Notes: generated by a model from the letters alone, not told the origin. A stretch of 64,000 nucleotides of DNA from an uncultured Gemmatimonadales bacterium (GCA_963695555.1 CAVOGR010000001.1:288001-352000); one strand, 5' to 3'; counted from the stretch's first letter, positions 1-36,613 are shown. Translations and numbers: made by a program.

Positions 1-1357
1 TGAACAGCGGCATGCTGTATCCGAATCGAGTCGGGGACCGTCGACCGCTCTGATAGAGAATCGACGCGTTCCAACCGAGCATTGCCACCGACGCGCTGTC
101 CGCAGTATGACCCCGCAAGTACTGGGCTGCCCGCAGGTCGTCACCAGGGATTCCGAAGTGCGCGTAATAGGCCTCCTTCGTGGTCGAGCCTGTCGCATAC
201 CGGAAGAACTCGAAGACCTCCAGCATTGGATGCGTGGTAACGTGAAAGCACATGACGGCGGCAACAATGACCGTAAAGGACAATCTGGAGGAGCCGGCAA
301 ATTCCACTTTGGCTACCTGCCATACACCGGATGCAACCAACACGGCAATCGGAGGGGACACGATCAGCCAGTGATAGGTGTAGAACCGCCCTTGCACAAT
401 GACGGCGGCGACGCCGATTGCGAGCCAGATCAGGGTCAGGGTCGCCACGCGGATCGTCGTCGTCCTGAGAGTCCACCACCCGAAGACAGCCAACGGAAGC
501 GCAACGGCAATCAGCGTTGCCGCTTGCCCAAAGAGGACTAGACCCTTCAGGCGGCCGGAGAGATTCAGCACACCGTGCAATGAGTAAGCCGACGCGGGAT
601 AGGTGTACAGGGCCTCGATTGCTTGTGGTAGCGCGCCATGGGCCGTGAACCATATCAGGGCGACGAGTGGCAGTAGGGCGGTACCGACCACGGCGGTGGC
701 CGCGTTCCGAAGCGCGTCGTACCGCCGGCCTTCTCGGAAGTCGAGGAATGCCAGGGAGAGCGGGAGGAAGAGAAACACAGCGTATGGTAGCTTGACGAGA
801 GCGCTGGCCCCGATGGCCAGTCCAGCCGCGCCCCACTGATGCCAGGGGCGCGAGTCGCCCTTGAGAGCCAACGGGAACAAGCCAATCGCGAGGAACATGC
901 CCACCCAGCCGTCCGGCTGAGCTGTTTGCCAGTAGGCACCCTCTGCGTACCAAAACGCGTACAGAACGACCGTCCATCGTGCGACGGCTTTCGTGGTGAG
1001 CACGCGCACGAGGCGGAAGAGGGCCGTACAGCACAGGGCGAGCAACAGGATATCCAGAATCCGGATGCCCCACATGTTCCTGCCAAAGATGGTCTGCGCA
1101 AGAGCGAACATGTAATGGGTGAGGGGGCCCTTGATGTCCCACGCGTCCCGGTATGGGAGCCCTCCCTGGGTGATCACGTCTCCTACCCATGCGAAAAGGC
1201 CTTGGTCCCAGCCGAACGGCCAGCTCAGCATCGAGATGAGAACGAGCACCAGCAGGAAAGCGAGGAAGCGAAAGGCCCAGCGTGCGAAACGCGGTGCTGG
1301 GGGGTCGGCGGTGGCCTGGGTACGTGGATCGGATTTGTGCGAGGGAGTCATCGGCAT
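1..1357 (-). CDS. GT-C fold (ArnT/PMT-like) membrane glycosyltransferase, 3' end runs off the window
   Basis: Not in the ORF track in this frame. Manual translation from ATG 1357 gives MPMTPSHKSDPR...RFLAFLLVLVLISMLSWPFGWDQGLFAWVGDVITQGGLPYRDAWDIKGP: a TM helix followed by the DQG..PY.D.WD.KGP loop typical of GT-C enzymes. The same frame reads LYQSGRRSPTRFGY at the left edge. Confidence 0.8.
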   Translation of the reverse strand, partial: MPMTPSHKSDPRTQATADPPAPRFARWAFRFLAFLLVLVLISMLSWPFGWDQGLFAWVGDVITQGGLPYRDAWDIKGPLTHYMFALAQTIFGRNMWGIRILDILLLALCCTALFRLVRVLTTKAVARWTVVLYAFWYAEGAYWQTAQPDGWVGMFLAIGLFPLALKGDSRPWHQWGAAGLAIGASALVKLPYAVFLFLPLSLAFLDFREGRRYDALRNAATAVVGTALLPLVALIWFTAHGALPQAIEALYTYPASAYSLHGVLNLSGRLKGLVLFGQAATLIAVALPLAVFGWWTLRTTTIRVATLTLIWLAIGVAAVIVQGRFYTYHWLIVSPPIAVLVASGVWQVAKVEFAGSSRLSFTVIVAAVMCFHVTTHPMLEVFEFFRYATGSTTKEAYYAHFGIPGDDLRAAQYLRGHTADSASVAMLGWNASILYQSGRRSPTRFGYSMPLF

Positions 1358-1468
1358 AGATCCAGGAAGGACAGTGGAATGTACATGTGATGCCGGATCC
1401 ACGTGCACTATCGTAGGAAGTTATCTATGAATGCTGTCGCCAGCTCTTCGATTGACCAGGTCCGGCCG

Positions 1469-3694
1469 CTACGGTTGAATTGCACCGTCTGGCGGCACCG
1501 TGCCCGGAAGAAAGGGACCGGCCAGGATGCTGACCCGCGTATCGCCATCACGTACGGGACCGATGACCCAGACAGGCCGATCGCTGAAATGGGCGACCAC
1601 CGCCTGACGGTGAGCGTGTCCCGCGTCGAAGGCGTAGATCGTCGCCGAATCTCCCAATGTGCGCGGGTTCAAGTTGAAGGCGCTCTGATAGATCGCCCGG
1701 TCTTGGGCATGCACAAAGACCAGGGCGTGCTCGAATTGATTCCGCTGCGCGAGAAGTCGGATGGCTCCGCCCACGTCACGGTAGCGATAGTATTTCGTAG
1801 CGCTGCGCCAGGGGAGGACAGTGAGTACGGCGCAGAGGCTCGCTGCGACCACGAACACGCCGGTGCGATACATAGGAAGCGGATGATCGCGCCCCGCCCG
1901 TAGGCCAACCGCTTCGGCCCCACGAACAGTCAGCACCACAAGCGGAATGAGTGCCTGGTACCAGTAGCGCGGGCCGAGGTCGGGGCCACCGCTGAACCAA
2001 TAAGCGCTGTGGCCCACGACGACCACAGTCACCAGAAGGATCATCAGCCAATCGGCGCGGCGTCGCTTTAGCAGCGGAAGGGCCACCACCGCCAATAGGA
2101 GCGACCCGCAGGCCCACCCGAAGAGGTCGAAATTGGCCATGAAGAGATTCTTGTTCGCGTTCAACACGACGTCCACGAAGCCGTGGCCGGGAAGCGGGTC
2201 GATGTTGGTCCAGGCAGGAATTCCAATGTGCGGACCGAATCCCAGGCGGTCGACTCCCGGCCCCCAGGTGCGGTCGGTCCACATCATGTGCGGAGCATAC
2301 GAAGGGCTTCCGGTAAGCGCGGCGTTATAGGCGAAGACAATGGCTGCCACGCCAGCCGCCGACACGGCGTACACCAGCATGGAGCGCACACGCGCGCGAG
2401 ATCCGCTCAAACCGACTATCCAGAGCAATGCGACGCTCCCCACCAACATCGCTTCGATCGGGCGCGTCAGAAACAGTGCACCGCTAGCCACGCCCGCCAC
2501 CAGCGCCCATCCGGCCGTGGGACGCCGTCGTTCGAGTTCGACCGCGAGGAGCGTCAAGAGGCCGAAGGCCAAGGCCACGGCATGCCCCATGAACGACGAG
2601 GAAGTGAAAATGAACCACGGAGAGACTCCCAAGAGGCATACCGAGAGGTTGGCAATGCTCCGATCGTACAAGAGGTGGACCACACGATGGGCCACAAGGA
2701 CGGTAAGACCGGCAATTAGTGGATTCACCAGCCACGGGAGGCCCACCAGCGCACCCAGAGCCAGCACGGCCGGCCATCCGGGAAAAGCGTATCCAAACCA
2801 TCTCGGCCCGTCGACAATCGTTTCGGCAACATGGAAAGAAGCCGAGTCAGGCGGAGCCGGGAGAAAGAGCTGCCCGGTGGACAGATACTTGGCCTGGAAC
2901 AGGTACGAGATGCTGTCGTCGATGTGAGGAACGCCCTCCATCACGAACCAGCTCACCAAGGCGGTCACCACCACCACCCATGCCGCGACGCCCCAGGGCA
3001 GGGAGCGATCCCAGGGCCGCAGTTCCTCACGAGTCGCATCCAGTGTCACATGGTGGTCCAGCCACGCGACCGTGCGCCTGAGAGGTTCCGCTGGAGCCAC
3101 GCCGGCGACGAGGAGAAGGTTGAGTAGTCCAATGAGAATGACCCATGCCGCTAAGGCAAATTCTCCGACGGCTCGAGCCGCGCTCTCGGTCGGCACAACG
3201 ATGGCAAACGCGAGGAGCCCGAGGACCCCCAGCGTGAGGAGCAGTCCACGGGGCCCGCTCCCCAGCAACGACCGAGCCACGCTCCGGGCATGAGTGCTGA
3301 CGGTAGGCCATGTCCTGACAGCCAAGACGATGCACACGATCGCTTGGATGGTGAGGATGCCCAGCACGAGCGTCGGGGCCTCGAGCAGGCGGCTCCAGGG
3401 GACGTAGTGTTGGTAGATGGCGTACCGGGGTGCGTCGATCAGCTGGAGCGCGCTGGCCTGGCCGGCGGCCGCGAGTCCTATGAGCGCCGTCATCGATCGC
3501 CACGGGCTCTCCCACATCAGGGCCAGCGCCAACAGCGCCGCACCGCTGACGAGCATCGGCAGGACGGTGGGATCGTAGTCGACGGCAGATGGCAGCGCGC
3601 GCCATCGGGTAACCGCCACCCACAGGCCGATGAGCCCTAGGACGGATAGCCCTCCTCGGTAGAGCCCTGAGAGCGCAGGTCGCCGTGGCGCCAT
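1469..3694 (-). CDS. Polytopic GT-C-like glycosyltransferase (paralog of 18235..20409)
   Basis: 741 aa with many hydrophobic segments; loop motif PHIDDSISYLFQAK, FPGWPAVLALG, GPRYWY. Confidence 0.75.
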   Translation of the reverse strand: MAPRRPALSGLYRGGLSVLGLIGLWVAVTRWRALPSAVDYDPTVLPMLVSGAALLALALMWESPWRSMTALIGLAAAGQASALQLIDAPRYAIYQHYVPWSRLLEAPTLVLGILTIQAIVCIVLAVRTWPTVSTHARSVARSLLGSGPRGLLLTLGVLGLLAFAIVVPTESAARAVGEFALAAWVILIGLLNLLLVAGVAPAEPLRRTVAWLDHHVTLDATREELRPWDRSLPWGVAAWVVVVTALVSWFVMEGVPHIDDSISYLFQAKYLSTGQLFLPAPPDSASFHVAETIVDGPRWFGYAFPGWPAVLALGALVGLPWLVNPLIAGLTVLVAHRVVHLLYDRSIANLSVCLLGVSPWFIFTSSSFMGHAVALAFGLLTLLAVELERRRPTAGWALVAGVASGALFLTRPIEAMLVGSVALLWIVGLSGSRARVRSMLVYAVSAAGVAAIVFAYNAALTGSPSYAPHMMWTDRTWGPGVDRLGFGPHIGIPAWTNIDPLPGHGFVDVVLNANKNLFMANFDLFGWACGSLLLAVVALPLLKRRRADWLMILLVTVVVVGHSAYWFSGGPDLGPRYWYQALIPLVVLTVRGAEAVGLRAGRDHPLPMYRTGVFVVAASLCAVLTVLPWRSATKYYRYRDVGGAIRLLAQRNQFEHALVFVHAQDRAIYQSAFNLNPRTLGDSATIYAFDAGHAHRQAVVAHFSDRPVWVIGPVRDGDTRVSILAGPFLPGTVPPDGAIQP

Positions 3695-3698: not shown

Positions 3699-5591
3699 CT
3701 ACCTCGAGCCTCCGACTGATACGGGGAACCAGCGCGATCGTTCCGGCCAGAGAAGATCGAGGCTCGTCCGGTAGGTCACCATGAGGGACTCCATGTCGTC
3801 TACGTTAGCGGCCTCGCGTGGGTCAGCCTCGATTTGATACAGCTCTTCCACGCCGTCCCCATTTCTGATGTAGTGGTACGGGGCCTCGACGAGCGCGCTC
3901 ATGATGCCCCTGGTCGAGGGGAACCATTCCGGCTGATTGGGAGCTGGGCGGAGCCCCGCAAGAAGGGGAGATAGGGTGATCACTGAATCCAGGCTGGAGT
4001 CGACTGTTCGCACCAACGAAGAGCCAGGGATAGAAGCGTCCGCGAGGCCGAGTAAGTCCAGCGCCGTTGCCGGGAGATCTCTCAAGCTGACGTATTGATC
4101 GACCACCGCGGCGGAAGGCAGGCGCGGCGGGTAAGTCATGAGCAACGGCACATGTAAAGTCGGAGCATATAGGCTGTTGCCGTGACCGAACAGATCATGC
4201 TCGCCAAACAATTCACCGTGGTCTGATGTCACCATGACGACGGTATTCTGCAGGAGGCCACGGCGCTCGAGTTCCTCGAACAGCCTGCCGAGTTCCGCAT
4301 CCATGTACGCAATCGCCGCCTCGTAGGCACGCTCCTCGGCGTGGCGTTCGATCTCGGACATCGCTCGTTTGCGCGATCGTTCCGCCATGCGCGGGCTGAG
4401 CTGCAGGATGAGGTTCTCGTCCCGTTCAGCGGAACCGCCGAAGACCGTGTCGAACGGCGGGGGAGGGAGAAACGGCTCGTGTGCGTCGTAGTAGTTGAGA
4501 AAGGCAAAAAATGGCCGGGGCGCCCCGTCTCCCACCCAACGCAGGAAGGCGTTGGTGATGTCTGTGGCGGTCTTTCGCCCGAGGATGTCGTGATATCCGA
4601 TGGCTGCGCGGAACGTCGGATTGTTGACGATAATCCGGCCGAGGGAGGAACTCATGACAATTTCGGACAGGGAAAGCGGTATGTCCTCATAGTGGACGAA
4701 TCCCTGCGCGATCCCGGTTTCTATGGTGCAGTACTGCAGATTGGCAACGAATCCGGCGGTGGCGTATCCATGGGCGGCCAGGACTTCGGCGAGGGTCGTG
4801 TGCTCGGCATCCAACGGCGCGGTCCATCCCGCGTTGAGTTCACTTGGGTAGAGGCCGGTGAACATGGTCAGGTGCGAGGGGAGGGTCCACGGTGACGTCG
4901 CGAATGCGTGTCGAAAGAGGACTCCCCGCTGCGCCCAGCGCTCGAGATGAGGTGTGTTGGCCACGGGGTGACCATAGAGCCCGAGGCTCATGGCCCGGAC
5001 AGTGTCGAGCACGATGAGGAGGAGGTTCGGCGCGTCAGCGGTGGCCTGGCCGAGCGCGGAGACCGCACGGCGTTCCCGCACGGCACCCCACCCCATCGCC
5101 CCTATGGCGAGACAAAGCGTACCGACGACGCCCACCCGGACAAGGCGTCGGGCGACGCGCTGGAACCCGGCGATGCGACCCGTCAGTACCCGTGTTGCCT
5201 GGACCGCAATCCCCAGCGCGAGAATCACGATGGCGACGCGATGGAGCGCTGGGAAGAAGAGGAAGAAGAAACTGAAGGCGCTCACGAGCCCGAGCACGAA
5301 TATCGAGACGCGCGGCGTGACCAGTCGTGGACGTACCCGAGCAGCAATGCTGAGCGCGATGCCGAATGGGAGGAGGAACAACACGTAGGAAAGCGGGGTC
5401 ATCCACGTGACATGGATGTTGACGGCAATGAACTCGTGCTGCAGGAACTTTCTTTGCCCGATGACGATGATCTCGGCGATGCCTGTGAGGAACGCAAAGC
5501 ATACGGCCACGAGGATGGGGAATGTCGCCCCCGCGTGGGGTGGGGTGGAACTCTCGACCTCGAGACCCATACGCTGCATAACGGCCTGCAC
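3699..5591 (-). CDS. Membrane-anchored sulfatase-like / alkaline-phosphatase-superfamily protein
   Basis: About 5 N-terminal TM helices, then PNLLLIVLDTVRA, SPWTLPSH..MFTG, FFAFLNYYDAHEP, TSDHGE..GEH...GHG. Confidence 0.85.
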   Translation of the reverse strand: MQAVMQRMGLEVESSTPPHAGATFPILVAVCFAFLTGIAEIIVIGQRKFLQHEFIAVNIHVTWMTPLSYVLFLLPFGIALSIAARVRPRLVTPRVSIFVLGLVSAFSFFFLFFPALHRVAIVILALGIAVQATRVLTGRIAGFQRVARRLVRVGVVGTLCLAIGAMGWGAVRERRAVSALGQATADAPNLLLIVLDTVRAMSLGLYGHPVANTPHLERWAQRGVLFRHAFATSPWTLPSHLTMFTGLYPSELNAGWTAPLDAEHTTLAEVLAAHGYATAGFVANLQYCTIETGIAQGFVHYEDIPLSLSEIVMSSSLGRIIVNNPTFRAAIGYHDILGRKTATDITNAFLRWVGDGAPRPFFAFLNYYDAHEPFLPPPPFDTVFGGSAERDENLILQLSPRMAERSRKRAMSEIERHAEERAYEAAIAYMDAELGRLFEELERRGLLQNTVVMVTSDHGELFGEHDLFGHGNSLYAPTLHVPLLMTYPPRLPSAAVVDQYVSLRDLPATALDLLGLADASIPGSSLVRTVDSSLDSVITLSPLLAGLRPAPNQPEWFPSTRGIMSALVEAPYHYIRNGDGVEELYQIEADPREAANVDDMESLMVTYRTSLDLLWPERSRWFPVSVGGSR

Positions 5592-5593: not shown

Positions 5594-6511
5594 CTAGGGT
5601 TTGGCGGTCAGATACCCGGCGGATTCACCCAGGCTCCAGGCGAAGAGCAGCGCCGTGACAATGGGCCACGCTACCGCAAGCCTGCCCAGGGCACGGAGCC
5701 TGACGAGTTGGCCGCGGACAATCCGGAAAAACAAGAGCCCTGGCAGGAACGGTGCCACTATTCCAAATATCAGGCGCCGGGTGAGTGTCATCTCGCGTGC
5801 CCGCGTATAGGCAAAGAGACGCCCCCAGCCAAGCCGCTCGCGAAGAAGGGCCGCCAGCCGAAGCGTGCCGCGCACTTGATCAACCACCAGGTCCGGGTGG
5901 AGATAGAGGATTTCGCCCGCCCGTTGAAGCGCCCAATGCACCGTCGTCTCATGGTATCGAGTGGCCCAGAGTTCCCGCGTCGCGTCGAGCACTCGGCGCT
6001 TGTAGCAGATATTGACGTCGGAAACATACTCTCGCGGTCCCGCTTCAAACGGTAACTGGTACCGGCCGAAATCACAGAAATACACCGCCCAATTCAACAG
6101 CCGGTCGCGTCCATTCTCGATGGCGCCGCCGATCACCGCGTGGGGGAGCCTGGCATGCAGTTCCACAGCCACGCGGGCCCAATTGGGGCGGGGGACTCCA
6201 CGGTCTTCCAGGATGGCGATCAACTCTCCCGTCGCGGCCGCCAGGCCGGTCGCACGCCTCCGGTCAAACAGCTCGTGCTGCCCCGCCGCGCTCGAGTTGT
6301 CGCGCTCGGTCGAGACGGCACCCATCGGGAGGAACAGCACCGACGGGTAGCGCGGAGCCAGGCCCGACACGTCGGCCGTCGCATCGTCATAGGGCACGAT
6401 GACTTCGAGCGTTGGCGGATGGTCCTGCTGCTGGAGAGCGTCGAGGCATCGTTCGAGCGCCTGCCCCCCGTCCACCACGGTGACGACCACCGAGAGGAGA
6501 GGCGTGCTCAC
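5594..6511 (-). CDS. Glycosyltransferase family 2 with C-terminal TM segments
   Basis: LSVVVTVVDG..LERCLDAL N-terminus, GELIAILEDR, hydrophobic C-terminus. Confidence 0.8.
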   Translation of the reverse strand: MSTPLLSVVVTVVDGGQALERCLDALQQQDHPPTLEVIVPYDDATADVSGLAPRYPSVLFLPMGAVSTERDNSSAAGQHELFDRRRATGLAAATGELIAILEDRGVPRPNWARVAVELHARLPHAVIGGAIENGRDRLLNWAVYFCDFGRYQLPFEAGPREYVSDVNICYKRRVLDATRELWATRYHETTVHWALQRAGEILYLHPDLVVDQVRGTLRLAALLRERLGWGRLFAYTRAREMTLTRRLIFGIVAPFLPGLLFFRIVRGQLVRLRALGRLAVAWPIVTALLFAWSLGESAGYLTAKP

Positions 6512-8121
6512 AGCATGACGTCCGCCACCCGAGCCGCATTAGCCATGAGGGTGAACGTCAGGTTCTTTGCGGGTAGAAACGGCAACACGGAGCCATCGAC
6601 GACATAGAGGTTCTCGAAGTCATAGCTCTGGCACGATGGTGAGCATGCCAATGGCGTTGGCCGCGCTGCCATGGGCATTGTGCCGGCGTAGTGAACACTC
6701 GACCCCCGGGGAAGCACCTGCGTCATGCCCGGCGGGACGAAACAGCCGAGTTGTCGAAGTGACTTCCGAAGGGTCCGTTTGACCCGCATGAGGCGCTGAG
6801 TCTCTCCTGGAGGCTCCGAAGCATAGCGAATGACGAGTTCGGTGCGATCGGTACCTTCAATCGGACGGATCGTCACGAAATTGTCTTGACGACGCTCATC
6901 GTGCAACCAGACGTTCGCCACGCCAAGCGCCGCGTGCGCTGTGCGGAACAGTCGACGCGACGCTCGGAGATCGAGCGGGATGTTCTGAATGATAGGATGC
7001 ACGGCACTGGCCTTCAGGGTGGTGATTTGGCCGTGCACGTACGCTCGCGCCTGTTCCGCCCGGATGCCAAGTGCGAGTTGATGGAACTGATAGGTGGCGG
7101 TGTTGACCGGATGGCCTAAGAGGCTGGTATTGACGAAGGGCATCATGATCTGACGGTTGTCCATGAGGCCATGTAGTCGTTCGACCCGCCCAGTCGCTCG
7201 GTAGATAGAATCGAGGATGAGCTTTGAGGTGCAGAGCGTGCCTGCCGCCAAGACAAACCGGTCCGCGGTGAACGTGTGACGCCGACCCTCGTCGAGTGCG
7301 GTTGCGACCAAGGCGGTCATGCGGCCCGACGAATCGTAGCTCAAGTGCTCGGCCAGCATCCCTGGGAGATACCGAAACCCGCTGCGACCCTGCAGTTCAT
7401 CCAAGGTCGTGGATGGCGCGTAGATCGCGTTCCGAGGACACCCCCAGAGACATCGGCCAAGGTAATCGCAGGCCTCCCGTCCTCCGTGGTCCCGGCTCAG
7501 GGTCGCGACCCGCGACCGCCCGAGATAGAAGTCGAGTCGCCGATTCAAGTGCTCCCGGCGCATGGCGTAGCGGTTCAGAAGCCGTTCTGCGTGGGGATCC
7601 AGCTCGAGAGGCTCCTGGTAGTGCGGATCCCAGGGCGAGAACTGGGCGATATCGTCCTGGGCGGCAGAAATTCCGATCCGGCGGGCCACGGTGTGGTAGT
7701 AGCGTTCCAGCGCCGCGTACTCGAAGGGAAAATCGCCGAGGTCGTCGTTGTTGAACGCATACACACCGCCGGTCCATGCCTCGGCCAGGCCACCTCGGGC
7801 GAAGGAAATGAGTGGCTCGAAACCCGTCCCCGTTGCCGCGAATGTCGTTGGAGCGGCGAAGACATACCGCTTACTCGGAGGAAACCCGTAATACTTCGCA
7901 TCGGCGGAGGGATAGACGACGGTCTCGGCGCTGGGGCCAAGGAAGTATGCCACGGGATCGTCCAGCTGTTCCTTGAGCTGGTCGAATGTGGCCGCCGCGA
8001 GGGGCTGAGCCGGTTGGGTGTATCCCACGTCCAGCATCATGACCTCATGGCCCTTGTCGAGTGCCGTGAGGGCAAAGTGAACGCCGCTTGCGCCCGAGCC
8101 GACAACCAGGACCTTAGCCAT
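6508..8121 (-). CDS. GMC-family FAD-dependent oxidoreductase
   Basis: Start moved to ATG 8121 (MAKVLVVGSGASG, FAD-binding GxGxxG); CxxxGxCxxGC Cys cluster; C-terminal HYAGT...NLYVVDGSVLP...N.TFT.MANA.R. Confidence 0.85.
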   Translation of the reverse strand: MAKVLVVGSGASGVHFALTALDKGHEVMMLDVGYTQPAQPLAAATFDQLKEQLDDPVAYFLGPSAETVVYPSADAKYYGFPPSKRYVFAAPTTFAATGTGFEPLISFARGGLAEAWTGGVYAFNNDDLGDFPFEYAALERYYHTVARRIGISAAQDDIAQFSPWDPHYQEPLELDPHAERLLNRYAMRREHLNRRLDFYLGRSRVATLSRDHGGREACDYLGRCLWGCPRNAIYAPSTTLDELQGRSGFRYLPGMLAEHLSYDSSGRMTALVATALDEGRRHTFTADRFVLAAGTLCTSKLILDSIYRATGRVERLHGLMDNRQIMMPFVNTSLLGHPVNTATYQFHQLALGIRAEQARAYVHGQITTLKASAVHPIIQNIPLDLRASRRLFRTAHAALGVANVWLHDERRQDNFVTIRPIEGTDRTELVIRYASEPPGETQRLMRVKRTLRKSLRQLGCFVPPGMTQVLPRGSSVHYAGTMPMAARPTPLACSPSCQSYDFENLYVVDGSVLPFLPAKNLTFTLMANAARVADVML

Positions 8122-10345: not shown

Positions 10346-10464
10346 GCGGTGACTCACTCCCTCGGTCGGACGTTGTGGCGGCGTGGCCCACTGTTGTGGA
10401 TTCGCGACACGGAAGTGGCCCCGTTCGGTTCCTGCCGGTGGTTGTCCGTCAGTCGAACTAGACA

Positions 10465-20409: not shown

Positions 20410-20432
20410 GGAAGCATCACCGCGTGTTGTGC

Positions 20433-26969: not shown

Positions 26970-28973
26970 TCAGAAGAGGCGCCAGAGGCCGCGCACCTTC
27001 CCCAGGTCTATTGTATAGCGACCGGCTCGAACTCCCAAAACACTGGACATCTCTTCGCGCGGGATCTCATAGACTCGGCTGCGGTAGTCCGTCCGACTCG
27101 GGCTCGACCGATCGCGTTCCCATTGTGCCAGATCTCTGACATACGCCGCCCCGTCGTCATTCTCAGCGATCTTCGAGAATCCGGGAGGCGGCGCTGACCA
27201 CGGTGGTTGGATGACATAGTTCGTGGCAGCTCCACGCCCTATGCTCTGCTCGGCATAATATACGAGCTCGATGCCCGCGACGAGTTCCGCGGCTGGATCG
27301 GCTACGTCCCAGTCGAGAGGAAACAACGCGGCGAGGAGGTTCCGCCCCTCGTACGATCTTCGGTGCGCTGCAAAATCCTTGCTGCCATAGTCGCCAATGC
27401 GATAGGCCATCGTGCTGCCGATCCGTCGCACGGTCCGATCGATCTCGAAGTGTCTCGGCAGCGATAGCATGAGAGCAATAAGGCCTGCTGCCAGGGTAGC
27501 GCCGATCAGCCACGGGCGACGGTGCTGCATGAGGGCAACGCGCCAGAAGACGATGACAGGGAGCATCATGACCGGCGCGAAGTGGTGGAGATTGGTGAAT
27601 GCCGGGAAGTAGAAAACGAGGAAGTATCCGAGTGTGGCCAGGGAGAGCGACCTGGCGATCCGGTCTTGCCGGCGGACGGCGAAGAGCGCCGCTACGGGAA
27701 GAATGCCTCCAGCGACGACCACCCAGATGACGCGGTGCCAATCATCGACGCGGATGTAGCGGAACCGATCCAAGATGGTGTCGGCGGCGTAGCCCGGTTG
27801 GGCCCCAGCCAGCGATGGGTACAGCATCTCATACCCGACATACACGAGGCCCCAGAGTCCGATGGTCGCAACAAAGAGGCCCGCGGTCCTGCGCCGCCGC
27901 TCGGGCACGACGAGGAAGACGCCGAGTCCCAAGAGGGCGATGAAGAGCAGACCAGTGGGCCGGGCCAGGTAGGACAGCACCGCAAATCCGACGAACCACC
28001 ACGGCTCGTCGGACCACAAGAAGTACGCAGCCCCGACCATCAGCGTGACGGTGAGCGTCTCAAAGGCCCCGGGAGACGAGGCATCGGCGAAATACGAACT
28101 GTAACTTGCACTGTAGCACAACGCGACAACGAAGATTGCCAAGGCAAGAACAATCAAAGCTTCTTCGAAGCGACCGAGGCGTCGCGGTGATCGTAATTCG
28201 ATCAACGCCACGAGGCTGGCGAACAACACCGGAAGATAAAGGATGATCGGCAACCTCGCGGCTGCCTCGATGGGTCCGAACAACATGACGAACCAGTGAA
28301 TCGGGTAGGCCATGGGCAGCATGCCGATGCCGAGGCCCACGAGTCCGCTCTTGGTCAAAAAGCGCGGGAGGACGGTCCAGGAGAGTGACCGGCCGATCTC
28401 GATCGCTTCGAAGCCATCAGGGCTGAGATCCTGCCAGAAGAGGATCGGGAGGAGGACGGCGACAGTGACCACCACGAGGGCGGCCATCCACCCGAGGCGA
28501 CGGTGCGTGATACCGTCGCTCGCGGGCCATCGGAGCTTGCCCGGACGGCGGAGGCGGGTAACCAGGACTCCCCAGGCAACGACCGCGGCACCGATGATGA
28601 GCGCCAGGAAGGTGCCTGGATCGATGGGGCGCGGGAAGAATGTCTTGGCGAGCGCGGTGGTGACGAAGTGGACCGCCAGCGAGACCCCAAGTCCCTTGAC
28701 GACCACGGCCTCGAGGCGTTCATCCCGGCCCTGGGCGAGCACTAAGAATATGCCCGGCAGCATAAGGACAGTCACCGCAGTGAGGCAGGCAAGGGGAAGC
28801 AGCAGATAGAGCAGCGCGGCGTGGCCCGGCACGAAATACGGATTCGCCGGGAGTGCGCCGGGATACAAGTCACGAACCGCCGCCGGGATACCCCGGGTCA
28901 GCAATACGCCCAGCACACTCGCCCCGAGGAACACCCCGGTGAAGACCCCTCGCCGCCTCTCGAGGGACCCCAT
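26970..28973 (-). CDS. Polytopic membrane protein, probable GT-C-like
   Basis: More than 12 TM segments, WQDLSPDGFE acidic loop, AARLP, ARPTG. ATG 28973 has GAGG upstream; alternative start 28994. Confidence 0.6.
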   Translation of the reverse strand: MGSLERRRGVFTGVFLGASVLGVLLTRGIPAAVRDLYPGALPANPYFVPGHAALLYLLLPLACLTAVTVLMLPGIFLVLAQGRDERLEAVVVKGLGVSLAVHFVTTALAKTFFPRPIDPGTFLALIIGAAVVAWGVLVTRLRRPGKLRWPASDGITHRRLGWMAALVVVTVAVLLPILFWQDLSPDGFEAIEIGRSLSWTVLPRFLTKSGLVGLGIGMLPMAYPIHWFVMLFGPIEAAARLPIILYLPVLFASLVALIELRSPRRLGRFEEALIVLALAIFVVALCYSASYSSYFADASSPGAFETLTVTLMVGAAYFLWSDEPWWFVGFAVLSYLARPTGLLFIALLGLGVFLVVPERRRRTAGLFVATIGLWGLVYVGYEMLYPSLAGAQPGYAADTILDRFRYIRVDDWHRVIWVVVAGGILPVAALFAVRRQDRIARSLSLATLGYFLVFYFPAFTNLHHFAPVMMLPVIVFWRVALMQHRRPWLIGATLAAGLIALMLSLPRHFEIDRTVRRIGSTMAYRIGDYGSKDFAAHRRSYEGRNLLAALFPLDWDVADPAAELVAGIELVYYAEQSIGRGAATNYVIQPPWSAPPPGFSKIAENDDGAAYVRDLAQWERDRSSPSRTDYRSRVYEIPREEMSSVLGVRAGRYTIDLGKVRGLWRLF

Positions 28974-29036
28974 TACCGAGGCCTCATATGGCATCCCATT
29001 GCGGCGGCGGCCCGAAGACCCTCGCCCCCGTGTAGG

Positions 29037-29055: not shown

Positions 29056-29177
29056 AGATGTTGCCGTTTGATTGCACACTTGGGCGTGAAGGAGCCATGT
29101 TTCCATTGAGGTAAGAGTCCGTGCCCGCGGGCGGTCGTGCTTTCGTCGCGTCCTCACTCTATTCGTCACTCGCTGCG

Positions 29178-29906
29178 ATGACCAATACTCTGTTACTCTC
29201 CGTTGTCATCCCCGTCTACAACGAGGAGGACTCCGTTTGCGAGCTCATCGCTCGTGTCCTCAGGGCGCCTCTGCCGGACGGGGTTCGTCTGGAAGTTGTG
29301 GTCGTGGACGACGGCTCCACCGACGCGACACGCGACAAGCTCGCCAGCTACCATGATCATGACGTGGTACGCGTCTTCCTCGCTCCACAAAACATGGGCA
29401 AGGGCGCCGCCCTGCGGCGCGGGTTCCAGGAAGCCCGTGGCGACCTGATTCTGATTCAGGATGCGGATCTCGAGTATGACCCCCGTGAATACCGAAGGCT
29501 TCTCACCCCCGTACTCGACGGCAACGCGGACGTGGTCTATGGCTCGCGCTTCATGGGGGGCGATTCGCATCGCGTGCTGTTCTTCTGGCATTATCTGGGC
29601 AACCGATTCCTTACACTGGTTTCCAATGCCTTCACCAATCTCAACCTCACCGACATGGAGACCTGCTACAAGCTGTTCCGCTCCGACGTTCTCCGTCAGA
29701 TCACGATTCAAGAGGATCGATTTGGGTTCGAGCCCGAGATCACCGCCAAGGTCGCCCGCCTCGGGGCCCGCATCTACGAGGTGGGCATCAGCTACGCGGG
29801 CCGCACCTACGCCGAAGGGAAGAAGATCGGCTGGCGAGACGGCGTCCGTGCGCTCTGGTGCATCCTCAAGTACAACCTCTTTGTCAGGACTCGACCGGTC
29901 GGTTGA
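29178..29906 (+). CDS. GT2 DPM1-like polyprenol-phosphate glycosyltransferase
   Basis: [57 protein letters not shown]. Confidence 0.92.
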
Positions 29907-29961: not shown

Positions 29962-30627
29962 GTGGTAACTGACTGGCTCATGACCCTCCGGCAAGCCCTA
30001 CCTAAGGCCGCGATTCTGGTGCGGCACATGCAGCCGTCGCTCGCACTTCCGGACGTGGGCGCCATCGAACCGGCGCTGTTGGAGTCGCTCGGCATCGAGG
30101 CAGTCATCTGGGACGTCGATGGAACCTTGATGCCGCGCCATGGCCGCGAGGTGGCGGAGCCGTTCCGCTCGTCATTCCGGCGTCTCGTTCTGGCCCCACG
30201 ACTCCGGCACGCCATCCTCTCGAACGCCGATGAATCACGGTACCGGGAACTGGGCACCATGTTCCCAGACATTCCAATTGTGCGCGCCTACGCGACCGCC
30301 AACGGCGTCGTGGGAAGGATTCTCCTTCGGGGGTCCGAGTCGTGGGACCCCAGGGCACTGCCAGCCACCGCGATAGCTACTGCCCGCGCGTTCCGAAAGC
30401 CGAGCACCGAACTCATCGCCGTTGCCCTCAAGGCGCTCAATGCCGATTCCCGCGAGAAGGTCCTCATGGTGGGAGACCAGTACCTGACCGACATTGCCGG
30501 AGCGAATCTCGCCGGTATTCGCTCCCTCAAGGTTCCCACCTACGCACCGGCCAGCTTTCCGGCGTCCGTCCGGATCCTACAGGCCTCCGAGCGGTTGTTG
30601 TACCGGGCCACCCATCTTCGACCATAG
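29962..30627 (+). CDS. HAD-superfamily IIIA phosphatase (YqeG-like)
   Basis: IWDVDGTL (motif I), ILSNA (II), RKP (III), MVGDQYLTDIAGAN (IV). Confidence 0.8.
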   Translation: MVTDWLMTLRQALPKAAILVRHMQPSLALPDVGAIEPALLESLGIEAVIWDVDGTLMPRHGREVAEPFRSSFRRLVLAPRLRHAILSNADESRYRELGTMFPDIPIVRAYATANGVVGRILLRGSESWDPRALPATAIATARAFRKPSTELIAVALKALNADSREKVLMVGDQYLTDIAGANLAGIRSLKVPTYAPASFPASVRILQASERLLYRATHLRP

Positions 30628-30712: not shown

Positions 30713-31510
30713 CTACCAGCCACCACGTCGGAAGAGGATGACCGGAATGGTCTTGAGCATGATCCGCAGATCCTCCGCGAAGCCGCGACGCGAAATGTAC
30801 TCCAAGTCAAACTCGACTTTTCTGCGGACGTCGTCCATGCTCGAGTCGTACGACTGATTGATCTGGGCGAGTCCGGTAATGCCGGGCCGCGTCCGTTGGC
30901 GCCCGGAGTAGTTTTGGATCTTGCCTCGCATGTCCGCAAAGATCGCCGGCCGTTCCGGCCGCGGCCCTACGATATTCATGTCGCCGCGGATGACGTTGAA
31001 CAGCTGCGGCAGCTCGTCGAGCCGGAATTGCCGGAGCACGCGCCCGACCGACGTGACCCGCGGGTCGTCCTCTTGCGCCCACACCGCGCCGGATCCCCGC
31101 TCAGCATTGACCTGCATAGTGCGGAATTTGTAGATGCGGAACGGGGCGCCGCCGAGATCGCGCACCCGCTTCTTCTCGTATTCGTCTCCGCCTTCCTCAC
31201 GACTTCCACTCCGGCGGTCCATGCCGATCCGGGCCTGTCGGTAAAGGACGGGGCCCGGTGAGGTGAGCTTGATGGCGATGGCAATGACGACGAGCAGCGG
31301 CGCGGTCAGGAGCAGGCCCAGCGTCGCGACGGCGATGTTGATCGCCCGCTGGAGCTTCCCGTCTGCTGTGGCGACTGGCGCCGGCTGCTCACTCTGGGGA
31401 GCGGCTGCTCCATCCCGGGCATTCGCACCCGGAATCACGTCTGGCTTGCTCGGCCGGTTTCTGCGACGATCCGAGTACCTCGTCCGGTCCTCAGGAATTG
31501 TGGTATCCAT
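30713..31510 (-). CDS. Priming phosphoglycosyl transferase (bacterial sugar transferase, WcaJ/PglC-type catalytic domain)
   Basis: SPGPVLYRQ.R.G, IYKFRTM, DDPRVT.VGR.LR..RLDELPQL.N..RGDM..VGPRPERP. Confidence 0.93.
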   Translation of the reverse strand: MDTTIPEDRTRYSDRRRNRPSKPDVIPGANARDGAAAPQSEQPAPVATADGKLQRAINIAVATLGLLLTAPLLVVIAIAIKLTSPGPVLYRQARIGMDRRSGSREEGGDEYEKKRVRDLGGAPFRIYKFRTMQVNAERGSGAVWAQEDDPRVTSVGRVLRQFRLDELPQLFNVIRGDMNIVGPRPERPAIFADMRGKIQNYSGRQRTRPGITGLAQINQSYDSSMDDVRRKVEFDLEYISRRGFAEDLRIMLKTIPVILFRRGGW

Positions 31511-31518: not shown

Positions 31519-32259
31519 TCAAAACACCCGCGAAAGGACCCATAGCAAGGTGAGCGGCGCTGTAACCAGGACCATGACCCCTTGAACGGAGCTTGTGAAA
31601 TTCGACTTGTCGCCCACGTTGATCTCATCACCGCCCTGAATGTTCAGGCGGTCGAGCGTGGTTCCGTATGTCAGAGCAGCCTGAGTCTCATTGCGATTCA
31701 GGAACTCCGACGACTGCCGGCGAACCGTAATCTTCTTGGTGTCCGCGGTGGACACGGGTCCACCGGCGGCCATGATGACGTCACTCAGGAGCGTCTGGGC
31801 AGGAAGGGCGTAATACCCTGGCCGTCCCACGGCTCCGAGAATGGCCACGCGAATCATTGCGACGGCCTCCACCGTGGGTTCTCGGAGATACTTGCCGAGC
31901 TCCGCCGTGAGGTAGTCTTGTACCTCCGAGCGCAGGACGCCGTGGAGTGAGATGTCAGGGATGTTCGGCAGGGTAATGGTGCGCCCTTCCTTGACCGTGA
32001 AGGTATCGGTAAGGGTCGGGTCCTGAAGCACAATGAGCGCGATGCGGTCGCCGACTTGGAAGTCGCCGTTCGCCAACCGGTCCTGAAGCATCAACCGCTC
32101 GGCTGGGTCGAGATTGGAACCTGATCGAGCGAGCAGATCTTCGAGTTCGGCCCGCGTTGTCTGGGCCCGCCGAGCGTCTGGATTGCCCTGAGCCTCCAAC
32201 GCAACGCTGAAGCCGGTCAGCAGGACGAGGGCCACCAAGGTCACCTTCGCAACTTGCAT
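31519..32259 (-). CDS. wza: Polysaccharide export protein (Poly_export/SLBB, Wza-like)
   Basis: Signal peptide, GDRI.L, G.I.LP.I, ILGAVGRPG.Y, AAGG, GDEI, hydrophobic C-terminal helix. ATG 32259 has GAGG upstream. Confidence 0.8.
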   Translation of the reverse strand: MQVAKVTLVALVLLTGFSVALEAQGNPDARRAQTTRAELEDLLARSGSNLDPAERLMLQDRLANGDFQVGDRIALIVLQDPTLTDTFTVKEGRTITLPNIPDISLHGVLRSEVQDYLTAELGKYLREPTVEAVAMIRVAILGAVGRPGYYALPAQTLLSDVIMAAGGPVSTADTKKITVRRQSSEFLNRNETQAALTYGTTLDRLNIQGGDEINVGDKSNFTSSVQGVMVLVTAPLTLLWVLSRVF

Positions 32260-32381
32260 TACTTCACACCTCATCCGGGGGCTGGTATCGGGGCCGAGCA
32301 GGCGCTGGCACCGATCTCAATCGAGTGAAGATCCACCACAGGGCCAGCCGCCCACCCATAACGCCAATTAGGGGTATGAGC

Positions 32382-33046: not shown

Positions 33047-33114
33047 CCTGGCAGCTACGGCCACCGCGGTCGGTCGCCACGGGATCGCACGACTCCTGCA
33101 CGGTGAAGCCAGCC

Positions 33115-34116
33115 ATGACCTACGATGACAACGCCGGAGCCAGGGCGATCGACCTGCCCGCCCAGCGTCCGCCTCGTGAGACGACCGAGACGCGCCCGCC
33201 ACTTGTACTGATCGCTAACGACCAGGAATGGTCCTCCCGATCGCTCGAGAGCATCCTCGCCCCGGAAGGGTATGCGGTGCTCCGCGCCTATACCGGGCTC
33301 CAGGCACTCGAGCGGGCCCGCACGGCTCAGCCCGATCTGGTGATCATCGAGGCGCAGCTGCCCGATATCTCAGGCTTCGAGGTCTGCCGGACCCTGCGCG
33401 ACGACCCCAGGTTCTGCGCCACGATCCCGGTGATCATCACCACCGCCGGTCCGTCCGGACGCGCTCAGCGGCTCGAGGCCCACCGCGCGGGCGCTTGGGA
33501 GTTCCTTGGCCAGCCGCTGGATGGTGAGTCGCTGCTCCTGAAACTGCACACGTTCCTCCAGGCGAAGCGCGAGGTCGACATTCTGCGCGACCAGAGCTTG
33601 TTGGATCATGATACGGGCCTCTACAACATGCGCGGTCTGGCCCATCGGGCTCGTGAGATCGGATCTGAAGCGTATCGTCACCACCACCCGTTAGCCTGTG
33701 TGGTGTTCTCACCCGAGCCGGCCTACCCCAAGGAGCACGAGGGGACTGAGGACTACGCCGCGGTGGTGGCGGAGGCCGTCGGAAATGTCATGCGTGAACG
33801 CGGTCGGACGTCCGATGCGATCGGCCGGCTTGGGCCAAGGGAGTTTGCGGTGATTGCTCCGGCGACCGACTCGGAGGGCGTGCTTCGGCTGGTCGATCGT
33901 TTGGGTGAGATCATCGAGGCCGCGCCCTTACCTGCGCAGGAGTTGGTCCGCATTCGTCTGCGAGCCGGCTATTCGGTTGTGCCCGACTTTGCGGAGGCCG
34001 CGCTCGACCCGGTGGAGCTCCTCCTTCGGGCCACGACTGCCCTCCGCCGGGTCCTGGGTGAGCCGGAGACTGCCGCTGGACGTGTGGTGCGGGCGTTCGA
34101 AGGCCCTGTCTACTAG
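33115..34116 (+). CDS. Response regulator: atypical receiver plus degenerate GGDEF domain
   Basis: REC fold (VLIANDQ...PDLVIIEAQLPDISG.EVCR), D..TGLYN.RG, RTSD..GRLGPREF. Confidence 0.85.
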   Translation: MTYDDNAGARAIDLPAQRPPRETTETRPPLVLIANDQEWSSRSLESILAPEGYAVLRAYTGLQALERARTAQPDLVIIEAQLPDISGFEVCRTLRDDPRFCATIPVIITTAGPSGRAQRLEAHRAGAWEFLGQPLDGESLLLKLHTFLQAKREVDILRDQSLLDHDTGLYNMRGLAHRAREIGSEAYRHHHPLACVVFSPEPAYPKEHEGTEDYAAVVAEAVGNVMRERGRTSDAIGRLGPREFAVIAPATDSEGVLRLVDRLGEIIEAAPLPAQELVRIRLRAGYSVVPDFAEAALDPVELLLRATTALRRVLGEPETAAGRVVRAFEGPVY

Positions 34117-34175: not shown

Positions 34176-34198
34176 GGCCTCGGTCTCATCGACCCGGC

Positions 34199-36613
34199 TC
34201 ACGGATCATAGCCGGTACTTTCGTCAGTGCCGTTTCCATGGCCCATCGGCAATTGACCGACTACCTCGTCGTCCGCGGTGTAGCCGTAAACGTACGAGTA
34301 GTACCGGTAGGTGCCGTGCTGCGTCTGGATGTCGTTGAGGACCGCGCCGAGCATCCGGATCGGGAGGCGGTCCATCAGGCGCAGCTTAGCCTCCGCCATC
34401 TGGCGATCGGTTTCGCCGGAGCGGAGGACCAGGAGCATGTGTCCCGTGGCGGTCCCGAGCACGAAGGGGTCGATGCCGGCGCCCAAGGGCGGGCTGTCCA
34501 CCACGATGGCGTTGAAGCGTGATTTCACTTCGGCCATGAGTTCCGTCATCGGTGGTGAGCCCAACATCTCGGGGCCTCGGTGGCGCCGGGTCCCACATGG
34601 AAGCACGGTGAGGCCGCGGTGCGTCGTCGGCTTCAGCACCTCGTCCAGCGTGGCTTCCTGGGTCAGGAAGTCCAACAGGCCGGGCTGGCGGTTGAGGCCG
34701 AACATGCGATGCAGCTCGCCCCGCCGAATGTCGCCGTCGAGCAACAGGGTCTTATAGCCGGCCTCGGCAAACGACAAGGCGAGGTTGGCTGAGACGAGCG
34801 ACTTACCGTCCCCGGGGCCGGGACTCGATACTGTGAGCAAGACCGGCCCTGCCGCGCCGTAGGAGTGAGCCAGGTTGAGCCGGATGGTCCGGAACGCCTC
34901 CACCACCTGAGACGCCTCTTCGGTGTCCCGCTTGCCCACCTTCACCTTTCGGATGGCGGGGATCGCACCCAGAATGGTCAGCCCCAGGTCGCGGGTCACT
35001 TGGTCGGGATAACGCACGCGCCGGTCCAAGCGGTCGAGGATGAGAGCGAGGAGAATGCCTGCCCCGAGGCTCCCGAGAAATCCGAGGAGCCAGATCTGCG
35101 GCGCCGTGTTGCTGGTTGGGCGAGCCCGTCCCGCCGCATCGAGCAGGCTCACATCCGGGATCGTGCTGGCGAGGGCGAACTTGGTCTGCTCGTAGTTGTT
35201 TTGCAGTTGCTGAAACAAGACTTCCGCCGAGTTCTTCTCACGCGTGAGCCGCTGCTCGGTGATTGTCCGGCTGGGGATCTGCTGCAGCTCACGGGATGCC
35301 GTTCCTAGTTGCTCTTCGAGGGCCTGTTCCTGGATACCGATCTCGGCGATGAGCCCCTGCGCCAATTGCGGGATCGTCCGGGTACGTAGCGACTGGATCT
35401 TCTGCTTCCGATCCTGCACTAATCGGTGGTCCTCGGTGTAGACGAAGAGGTCGGTGCGAAGCTGCGCCTCCTCGGCCGCCAATTGCTGGAGGGCACTGCT
35501 CAGCTCGGGTGACGTCTGGACCTTCGGGATTGCCTGGAAGGCTTCAATGGTGGTCGAGGTCGTGGCTGTACGGGCGAGGGCGCCCTCGAGGGCTCTCCGG
35601 TCCTGTTGGAGCGCGTCCAGCGCCAGCCGTTGCTGGAAGTAGTTGGTCATGACGGTCGGCTGGGTCGACGCGAGGCCAGCGGCCACCGGGACGCCTTCAT
35701 TCGGCAGTGTGATGGTCCGGACCCGGAAATTCTCGAGGGCGTTCTCCTTTTGCCGGAGATCGGCTCCTGCCAGATCGACCTGCTCTTCCAGTGCATCGAG
35801 CTGTGCCGTCAGCTTCCTGGTCTTCTGCTCGGCCGCGACCGAGACGAACTGATCGACCACCGCATTGAGCGTCGTGGTAACCTGCTGGGGATCCTTACCC
35901 GTGTACGAAATGGTGAGGAAGTTCCCGCCTCCCGTGAGGCGAGGTGCCAAATGCGGTACGATCGCGGCCGCGGCCGCGCGCACGGTCGTGACGCTGAATG
36001 AGATGGTCCGGCCATCCTTTAGTACCGCTGGAGCGGGGGTCCAAACAAACCCGACGGACCTGCCGATCGAGTCACCCGGTGTCCCGGTTTCCACCGCGGT
36101 GGCTCCGCTCCGGAGAACGTACTGCCGTCCGTCCGGGGTCAGCGTGAGCGCGTACTCCCCGGGAGTGTACGGCTCGCGCAAGTCGAAGGTCTCGAAGACG
36201 GCCGAATCGGCCGGCGCGGTCTTGAGGTAGAGCTTGGCCTTGAGCGCTGCCGAGTCGAGCACAACCCACGTGTTGAGAAGTTCGGACCACGCCTCCTCAT
36301 CCAGCAGCTCGCGCGCCCGGATCGGGCCGCGCTGTCCCGGATTGGGCTCAATCCAAATCTTTGCGGTGGTTGAATAGTCCGGTCTGATGAATCGGCTTCC
36401 GAACACGCCGCCTACGGTGCCGAGCACGGTCAGGCCGAGGATCATCCACTTGTAGCGCCGAAGTGCCGCGAGGTACCGGCCCCAATCGATGCCGAACTCC
36501 TCCTCGGCGTAGGGTGCTGGTGGCGCGAGGGTGGCCTGGACAGTCGGCGCAACCTCCGGGACCCCGATTGGGCGCCCGATATCGGGGAGATTGGGGTTGG
36601 GGCTGTCAGCCAT
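34199..36613 (-). CDS. wzc: Polysaccharide co-polymerase / BY-kinase (Wzc)
   Basis: Wzz-type N-terminus, coiled coil, TM2, EAFRTIRLNL, Walker A SPGPGDGKS, DGDIRR, VDSPP, Tyr tail YRYYSYVYGY. Confidence 0.95.
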   Translation of the reverse strand: MADSPNPNLPDIGRPIGVPEVAPTVQATLAPPAPYAEEEFGIDWGRYLAALRRYKWMILGLTVLGTVGGVFGSRFIRPDYSTTAKIWIEPNPGQRGPIRARELLDEEAWSELLNTWVVLDSAALKAKLYLKTAPADSAVFETFDLREPYTPGEYALTLTPDGRQYVLRSGATAVETGTPGDSIGRSVGFVWTPAPAVLKDGRTISFSVTTVRAAAAAIVPHLAPRLTGGGNFLTISYTGKDPQQVTTTLNAVVDQFVSVAAEQKTRKLTAQLDALEEQVDLAGADLRQKENALENFRVRTITLPNEGVPVAAGLASTQPTVMTNYFQQRLALDALQQDRRALEGALARTATTSTTIEAFQAIPKVQTSPELSSALQQLAAEEAQLRTDLFVYTEDHRLVQDRKQKIQSLRTRTIPQLAQGLIAEIGIQEQALEEQLGTASRELQQIPSRTITEQRLTREKNSAEVLFQQLQNNYEQTKFALASTIPDVSLLDAAGRARPTSNTAPQIWLLGFLGSLGAGILLALILDRLDRRVRYPDQVTRDLGLTILGAIPAIRKVKVGKRDTEEASQVVEAFRTIRLNLAHSYGAAGPVLLTVSSPGPGDGKSLVSANLALSFAEAGYKTLLLDGDIRRGELHRMFGLNRQPGLLDFLTQEATLDEVLKPTTHRGLTVLPCGTRRHRGPEMLGSPPMTELMAEVKSRFNAIVVDSPPLGAGIDPFVLGTATGHMLLVLRSGETDRQMAEAKLRLMDRLPIRMLGAVLNDIQTQHGTYRYYSYVYGYTADDEVVGQLPMGHGNGTDESTGYDP

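Follow-up and report, generated by a model that had tools for sequence, protein, structure and literature searches.

The locus and the question it raises

How a diderm bacterium comes to keep an array of polytopic GT-C glycosyltransferases within a locus for polysaccharide export, and what these enzymes would act on there, is the question raised by a 64,000-nucleotide stretch from an uncultured Gemmatimonadales bacterium (GCA_963695555.1, CAVOGR010000001.1:288001-352000). This stretch, hereafter the window, corresponds to positions 288001-352000 of contig C1 of the host genome (G000), which is 87 % complete. An earlier reading of the sequence alone (the original prediction) had proposed a new glycan system in positions 1-36613, i.e. 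a Wzc/Wza locus built on about eight GT-C enzymes. The parts listed there are all present, i.e. eight GT-C-like proteins, four DPM1-like GT2 glycosyltransferases plus one other GT2, a DUF2304 protein, a UPF0104 protein, four oxidoreductases and two sulfatase-like membrane proteins, and LpxB of lipid A synthesis is present in G000, in support of the proposed diderm host. With moderate confidence, we read the locus as one in which a Wzx/Wzy pathway makes the backbone of a polysaccharide, and an accessory, greatly expanded GT-C array uses several polyprenyl-phosphate sugars to decorate this backbone in the periplasm.

Eight membrane proteins of the GT-C type

All eight polytopic proteins (GT-C A to H) are encoded on the minus strand, downstream of wzc. 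Pfam PMT/PMT_2 models matched four of them above cut-off, i.e. GT-C A of the PMT_2 family (1..1408; PF13231, 53.3 bits, cut-off 26.1), GT-C B with 12 predicted transmembrane (TM) helices (1469..3694; PF13231, 28.2 bits), GT-C D (16451..18115; PF13231, 43 bits) and GT-C F (21538..23133; PF02366, 36.7 bits; PF13231, 29.6 bits). GT-C A is cut by the window edge, the complete gene (C1:287741-289408) encoding 555 aa, and homologues of GT-C B were found in 23 of the 41 relatives. GT-C E (18235..20412; PF13231, 22.3 bits, below cut-off) is a paralogue of GT-C B (phmmer, E 6e-117), and these two are the sole matching pair among proteins of otherwise slight mutual similarity.

GT-C G (25374..26849) and GT-C H (26970..28994) belong to families without a Pfam match and were assigned by AlphaFold2 models (pLDDT 93.8 and 94.6, respectively) and structural searches. 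GT-C G matched ArnT (VIA Z 19.1, rmsd 3.6, 274 aligned) and GPI mannosyltransferase I (VIA Z 19.0), and GT-C H matched ArnT (VIA Z 22.8, rmsd 4.1, 370 aligned). In wide searches with both models, ranks 1-20 were occupied by GT-C-fold enzymes, including ArnT, ALG, PMT, AglB and Aft/Emb, beyond which Z lay at about 5-6. The resemblance to ArnT is one of fold, with an identity of 12-14 %. Foldseek gave no match at E≤0.001 for either model, its top rows nevertheless being GT-C enzymes.

GT-C C (10563..12077), which served as marker of the module, is the weakest case: it has no Pfam match of its own and is assigned through its homologues, PF02366 being found in 5 of 120 among the matches listed and PMT/PMT_2 in 11-44 % of the members of its Atlas neighbours. 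The 11 homologues rescanned were hand-picked, four of them because they carry PF02366, and a profile search with the alignment against the PDB gave no match. Each of the three families without their own Pfam match has an invariant acidic residue in its alignment, i.e. D127 in GT-C G, D193 in GT-C H and E30 in GT-C C, the last within an invariant R29-E30 pair; models and hydropathy would place these residues in the first external loop.

PF04932 (Wzy_C) matched none of the eight, which is weak alone as many Wzy proteins do not match that model; likewise, the structural matches listed contained no WaaL- or RodA-type structure, which by itself excludes nothing. It is therefore the positive matches to GT-C subclass A that argue for GT-C rather than Wzy, and this subclass is listed separately from the Wzy and ligase clans by Meitil et al. 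(PMC10920833). A Wzy or Wzx identity of the eight proteins was rejected on the Pfam and structural matches. Profiles and models thus support the assignment of all eight to the lipid-phosphate-sugar type of GT-C (subclass A), with donor use as a prediction; GT66, also of subclass A, uses lipid-diphosphate donors (PMC10920833, Table 1). Outside the cluster, a single gene at C1:159140-161143 encodes a protein 40 % identical to GT-C H and paralogous to it, with no cluster-like neighbours except an epimerase.

An ordinary Wzx/Wzy pathway in the same cluster

The window holds the right third of a cluster of about 95 kb (C1:229.5k to 324.6k), which continues for about 58 kb to the left, as far as C1:229.5k. 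Among the main window open reading frames (ORFs) scanned, no GT4, Wzx or ABC exporter was found, as had been stated from the sequence, because the window edge cuts the cluster and both GT4 and Wzx genes lie to the left. There, 7-58 kb from the window, are six GT4 genes, two wzx genes (PF01943/PF13440) and a Wzy/O-ligase-like gene (C1:233301-234527; PF04932, 67 bits). The priming phosphoglycosyl transferase (PGT), cytoplasmic glycosyltransferases, Wzx, Wzy-like protein, Wzc and Wza are thus all encoded within C1:229.5k-324.6k, the Wzy call being that of PF04932, a family that also includes O-antigen ligases. Models for XrtA-associated GT4 and O-ligase proteins gave the best matches, below cut-off, for genes of the cluster.

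Since G000 has a single wzc, this ordinary route shares it with the GT-C array. The view of a locus built on GT-C enzymes instead of the classical route therefore has to be given up. That an ordinary GT4-rich Wzx/Wzy module might occupy the flank had been foreseen as an objection, and it does; the other half of that objection, that the GT-C genes would merely neighbour it without conserved linkage, is not borne out by the comparison of genomes described below.

The left flank also encodes a UbiA protein scoring above the decaprenyl-phosphate phosphoribosyltransferase (DPPR) cut-off, i.e. of the polyprenyl-phosphoribose synthase type, a ninth GT-C-like protein (30 % identical to a protein of relative G029 that matches PMT_2), further GT2s, a second PRK07208 flavoprotein, a UDP-sugar dehydrogenase, AsnB, heparinase-like (lyase-like) and hydrolase-like proteins and a PF13469 sulfotransferase. 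Directly left of GT-C A follow cysD, cysC, cysQ and cysN, and then a third sulfatase-like gene.

Within the window, the classical pathway is represented by the genes for the PGT (30713..31510, minus strand; PF02397, 1e-59), a short Wza/OPX protein (31519..32274, minus strand; PF02563, PF10531) and the Wzc co-polymerase/tyrosine kinase (34199..36613, minus strand; TIGR01007, above cut-off). The minus-strand genes between 26849 and base 1 follow one another closely, with gaps of -8 to 119 bp.

Conservation and linkage to wzc

Most of the homologues with a name, and most of the related loci, come from Gemmatimonadales and other Gemmatimonadota. While wzc was found in 35 of the 41 relatives, the GT-C C family occurs in 23 of 201 genomes of the phylum, indicating that the array is accessory. 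Of the 22 other GT-C C carriers, 21 have wzc, and in 11 of these 21 GT-C C shares a contig with wzc and lies downstream of it at a distance of at most 60 kb. Among the decidable Gemmatimonadales cases, the module is inside the wzc locus in 11/15. GT-C genes were seen in 8 of 16 wzc loci from other genera, several of which are partial; in the loci of G023, G025, G027, G031 and others, no GT-C was seen in the part of the locus covered.

Cassettes recur in shuffled order in the wzc loci of eight relatives (G002, G006, G029, G071, G140, G206, G123 and G114), i.e. GT-C D/GT2 b/UPF0104/mutase-like/GT-C C/GT2 a/short-chain dehydrogenase/reductase (SDR)/GMC; sulfatase-like/GT-C B or E/epimerase/GT2; GT2/epimerase/two GT4/mutase-like/GT-C; and sulfatase-like/cys genes. 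The adjacent genes for GT-C D, GT2 b and UPF0104 are conserved in G002, G004, G029 and G071. The array is therefore no chance neighbour of the wzc locus: as the proposed synteny check across relatives reveals, the linkage is conserved but accessory.

At the right border, the genes for a histidine kinase, a sigma-54 response regulator (both 36801..39631, plus strand), Wzc and a receiver-GGDEF-like regulator (33103..34116, plus strand), which is kept beside wzc, form a core conserved across the order (33103-39631). This core often precedes exosortase/EpsI genes, which the host genus appears to lack.

Donor synthesis and a possible route

Four DPM1-like GT2s are predicted to make polyprenyl-phosphate sugars: GT2 a (9551..10465, minus strand; PF00535, 7e-26), with NCBIfam PgfS, ArnC and AglJ matches that are all below cut-off; the DPM1/AglJ-like GT2 b with two TM helices (15531..16454, minus strand); the PpgS/GacI-like GT2 c (20840..21541, minus strand; NF058614 PpgS, 213 bits, cut-off 370); and GT2 d (29121..29906, plus strand; PF00535, 7e-35). 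The genes for GT2 c, GT-C F and a DUF2304 protein (20433..20843, minus strand; PF10066, 55.6 bits), which we take to be a GacJ/Rv3632-like activator, are adjacent. Together with the UbiA protein, at least five donor synthases are predicted. The fifth GT2 of the window (5594..6511, minus strand; PF00535, 28.7 bits) has two C-terminal TM helices. Candidate flippases in the cluster are Wzx and the UPF0104/LPG_synthase_TM protein (14566..15534, minus strand; PF03706, 105.6 bits; TIGR00374, 33.7 bits, below cut-off).

The oxidoreductases include a PRK07208-like flavoprotein, a candidate nucleoside-diphosphate-pyranose mutase (13149..14573, minus strand), with eukaryotic UDP-galactopyranose mutase 4dsg as best PDB match (6e-10) and NF005547 below cut-off; a Gfo/Idh/MocA sugar dehydrogenase (12074..13129, minus strand); a sugar-dehydrogenase-like GMC flavin adenine dinucleotide (FAD) oxidoreductase (6508..8121, minus strand; PF05199), with FAD glucose dehydrogenase as best PDB match (7e-13); and an extended SDR/NAD epimerase (8602..9535, minus strand). 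By analogy, the last two could be an oxidise-reduce epimerising pair resembling DprE1/E2. Between their genes lies one for a 163-aa protein without a Pfam family (8114..8605, minus strand), and the three form a conserved trio (6508-9535).

A route in line with these genes would run as follows. PGT, GT4/GT2 enzymes, Wzx and the Wzy-like protein would build and polymerise an undecaprenyl-diphosphate-linked backbone for export via Wzc/Wza. In parallel, the four DPM1-like GT2s, one with its DUF2304 activator, and the UbiA phosphoribose synthase would load sugars onto polyprenyl phosphate, possibly including furanoses that the mutase-like flavoproteins supply and the oxidoreductases remodel. UPF0104 and one Wzx may then flip these donors, and the GT-Cs would attach side chains and probably also extend them, as nine transferases exceed the need of single-sugar branches. 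Finally, the sulfatase-fold proteins, with five TM helices and a Thr nucleophile, might add an anionic group. In this form, the proposed heavy decoration of a polymer from several lipid-linked donors agrees with the several donor synthases, the GT-C matches and the conserved linkage to wzc.

Sulfatase-fold proteins and sulfate activation

The two sulfatase-fold (alkaline-phosphatase (AlkP) superfamily) membrane proteins of the window (3699..5591; PF00884, 3e-47; and 23179..25377; both minus strand), the second of which is not at the equivalent place in G002, have about five TM helices ahead of the AlkP domain. In all three copies of the cluster, WTLPSH, with a Thr nucleophile motif, replaces the formylglycine motif; the S1 motif C/S-x-P-x-R is absent, with Thr and His at the Cys/Ser and Arg positions in the PDB alignment. 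Their best PDB matches are sulfatases, EptA models being far below cut-off. LtaS/EptA/GacH-type transferases have about five N-terminal TM helices, an external AlkP domain and a Thr nucleophile. A crude count of charge bias (mean Lys+Arg per loop of 2.5, 2.1, 2.6, 0.9, 3.1 and 3.0 in 14 five-TM homologues) weakly favours a periplasmic domain.

The family tracks genes for 3'-phosphoadenosine-5'-phosphosulfate (PAPS), a link absent from the original prediction. Of the genomes with the sulfatase-like family, 29 of 36 have adenosine-5'-phosphosulfate (APS) kinase, compared with 63 of 165 non-carriers, and within the order 18/21 compared with 33/120; among the 18 in-order carriers with APS kinase, the distance from its gene to a listed sulfatase-like gene is at most 10 kb in 12 and at most 40 kb in 16. 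These counts are descriptive, as kin are not independent and significance would be overstated. The only cysD, cysC and cysN genes (sulfate activation) of G000 sit in the cluster, and neither sulfite reductase nor a separate CysH was found in this 87 % complete genome. Of the 23 GT-C C carriers, 18 also carry the sulfatase-like family. Against plasmid records, all 14 matches of the sulfatase domain at E≤1e-15 were haloarchaeal, in each of three that were inspected the match sits among glycosyltransferase genes, and the WT.PSH motif is shared by two of the three haloarchaeal match proteins checked.

The association with PAPS genes suggests glycan sulfation. As the role of these proteins, transfer of sulfate is a tentative choice, at somewhat less than even probability; transfer of a phospho-substituent as by GacH, and hydrolytic editing, are both rather doubtful, to the same degree. 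A YqeG/PGP-phosphatase-like HAD protein encoded nearby (29962..30627, plus strand) fits GacH-like glycerol-phosphate transfer and speaks against sulfation. Two more genes for WTLPSH sulfatase-like membrane proteins lie elsewhere in G000 (C1:448251-450434, near GT4 homologues, and C2:439985-441793), and relatives have runs of at least six tandem sulfatase-like paralogues (G140:C3:1883-1899k; G019:C197:20-31k).

Weighing the explanations

Several observations weigh against decoration of a Wzy-made backbone by the array. No acceptor was identified, and we infer a polysaccharide from the position and linkage of the genes; the GT2 enzymes all score below the NCBIfam cut-offs, which thus point to no particular donor sugars; and neither GtrA (PF04138) nor a DprE1-type gene was found in the 87 % complete host genome. 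GT-C C lies on another contig than wzc in four well-assembled genomes (10-20 contigs), and the two are on different contigs in six fragmented assemblies (80-270 contigs). The anionic step is burdened by the classical PF13469 sulfotransferase of the cluster, which could itself account for the PAPS genes, by the separation of the predicted periplasmic domain from cytoplasmic PAPS, and by the overstated significance of the co-occurrence counts. Furthermore, in a tally of 62 loci from Gemmatimonadota, Chloroflexota, Planctomycetota, Acidobacteriota and others that encode a member of the GT-C H family, which leaves out the near-identical same-genus locus L082 and the GT-C H paralogue of G000, another GT-C lies within 10 kb in 28 loci and a sulfatase-like gene in 24, but wzc/wza/PGT homologues in only four. 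Several of these loci are from Chloroflexota, which are monoderm. This makes the module a mobile one, whose tie to a Wzc/Wza exporter does not hold everywhere.

This mobility bears on what else the array could do. Its targets for glycosylation and sulfation might be envelope proteins (e.g. exosortase substrates) or glycolipids of the membrane, as with archaeal agl clusters, and it would share the exopolysaccharide (EPS) locus because both serve the same surface layer. In G006, G019, G071, G140 and G206, the array is separated from PGT directly by genes for exosortase and EpsI, the set of AglJ-like GT2, UPF0104, Wzx-type flippase, GT-C and sulfatase-fold proteins parallels haloarchaeal clusters, to which all plasmid matches of the sulfatase domain likewise led, and PMT/PMT_2 models match five of the eight GT-Cs. 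However, the PMT_2 model is broad enough to include ArnT-like enzymes as well, exosortase is also found in many relatives in which the sulfatase-like marker was not, and neither profiles nor the relatives' proteins detected exosortase or EpsI in G000 (87 % complete) or in four other genomes of the genus; a PEP-CTERM family search, without signal in any control, was uninformative. Overall, we regard a protein or glycolipid target as unlikely. Still less probable is a second, free-standing polymer built purely from lipid-monophosphate sugars, as in mycobacterial arabinan/lipoarabinomannan, independently of the Wzy product, which is the strong form of the original prediction: the diversity of the nine GT-Cs, which show little similarity to one another, a set of five or more donor synthases and recurrence across phyla without wzc nearby would suit it, but cassette content and order vary freely among relatives, unlike in a fixed assembly line, a second export or anchoring system was not found, and the module sits inside the wzc locus in 11/15 decidable Gemmatimonadales cases.

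Modification of lipopolysaccharide (LPS), i.e. of O-antigen or lipid A, as carried out by Gtr, GT136 and ArnT/EptA, seems very improbable. It could draw on the presence of LpxB, on ArnT as top structural match, on the O-antigen ligases spanned by the Wzy_C family and on the sulfatase-like proteins, in which TM helices are combined with an AlkP domain as in EptA and which match it weakly; against this, the likeness to ArnT is confined to the fold, the array is located in the wzc/wza locus, and the strongest PMT_2 match of the genome lies elsewhere, at C1:735193. That the wzc locus is merely a hotspot at which glycan genes of no common function insert is the least credible explanation. While the region downstream of PGT is highly variable in relatives and the four well-assembled genomes have GT-C C elsewhere, the same cassettes recur at wzc in many genera, which belong to two families, and GT-C C keeps company with the sulfatase-like family in 18/23 genomes.

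Decoration of a Wzy-made backbone thus remains the reading that we favour; the genes present, the fold class of the GT-Cs and the conserved place of the array downstream of wzc are shown, while the donors, the roles of the flippases and the acceptor are inferred. A bolder version, which we consider improbable, would see a mobile, cross-phylum module in which a GT-C relay builds branched side chains on an exported polysaccharide wholly outside the cytoplasm and Thr-nucleophile sulfatase-fold transferases of a new class sulfate them in the periplasm from a PAPS-charged membrane carrier. If true, the combination of GT-C relay and periplasmic sulfation would be a bacterial counterpart of Golgi-style glycan maturation.

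Comparison with known systems

The system resembles the multi-component Gtr and GacI-L/H systems and differs in scale, in its wzc/wza setting and in its tie to PAPS. GtrABC, streptococcal GacI/J/K/L with GacH, a layout of GT2, DUF2304, Wzx-type flippase (GacK), GT-C and LtaS-family transferase, and lactococcal Csd/Wps likewise combine a GT-A lipid-phosphate-sugar synthase, DUF2304-type activator, flippase, GT-C and AlkP membrane enzyme near a polysaccharide pathway (PMC9574508). In contrast to Gtr and Gac systems, a single wzc/wza locus of a diderm here combines nine GT-Cs with at least five donor synthases, and GtrA was not found; unlike GacH, a glycerol-phosphate transferase, its AlkP enzymes belong to a sulfatase-like family with the WTLPSH motif, which is linked to PAPS genes.

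Side-chain addition by UbiA-fed GT-Cs has been demonstrated, and elaborate multi-GT-C systems of unknown significance have been noted (PMC11127046). Like the pentofuranose systems of PPPRS, flippase and GT136 and the mycobacterial DPPR/Aft/Emb enzymes, the cluster has a UbiA phosphoribose synthase, an SDR epimerase and several GT-Cs (PMC11127046), but here UbiA is stand-alone, without a HAD fusion, and one donor route of many, and a DprE1-type gene was not found. The product is probably EPS or capsule rather than O-antigen, unlike that of pentofuranose systems.

In Halobacterium, the sulfatase-fold proteins Agl30 and Agl31 are glycan sulfotransferases within an N-glycosylation cluster (PMC11980604), similar by description to the sulfatase/AlkP-fold proteins among the glycosylation genes here; Agl30 has one predicted TM helix and Agl31 is cytosolic, in contrast to the window proteins with about five TM helices and a predicted periplasmic domain. 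The synechan (xss) cluster combines Wzx/Wzy EPS genes with a classical sulfotransferase gene, comparable to PF13469 here, and is described, in the part of the source covered, without GT-C array or sulfatase-fold enzymes (PMC8205485). Exosortase/EpsH-type EPS loci differ in having an exosortase, which was not found in G000, and Actinoplanes has separate Wzx/Wzy and GtrA-type clusters (PMC13390465).

Among the open papers covered, we found no description of this module in Gemmatimonadota. The periplasmic glycosylation systems characterised in these papers use one or few GT-Cs; with nine of them in a wzc/wza locus, and cassettes conserved in about a tenth of the Gemmatimonadota sampled, glycan assembly outside the cytoplasm would reach to the exported polysaccharides of a phylum that has been little studied. 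The locus also adds GT-C families for which Pfam has no model, at least three in number (C, G and H), and a candidate bacterial sulfatase-fold sulfotransferase, a chemistry so far shown, as far as the literature found goes, for haloarchaeal Agl30/31.

Other features of the cluster

Frameshifts split the SDR gene (near 9309-9332), asnB (C1:246698-248733) and cysD (C1:286683-287533). As G002 has the SDR gene (a single ORF there) and cysD intact and has other genes split, assembly indels rather than pseudogenes are suggested. In the left flank, three tandem paralogues of secreted proteins or lipoproteins (C1:272551-278433) have Ig-like N-termini and a nearly identical, glycoside-hydrolase-like C-terminal domain of about 420 aa (weak PDB match to a xylanase, E 0.11), with homologues in 6 of the 62 GT-C H loci. 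A GINT1-N domain protein (glucosamine inositolphosphorylceramide transferase N-terminal; C1:257358-258998) is encoded in the cluster and also in the G029 locus.

A scan for promoters and terminators in 28800-37000 gave signals at chance level, and a minus-strand ORF (29193-30272) was rejected as a gene, being the antisense shadow of two plus-strand genes. To the right of the glycan cluster and unrelated to it, the window encodes an NYN/LOTUS protein (41292-42860) and an RDD-SpoIIM fusion adjoining a MoxR-type AAA gene (58917-63999).

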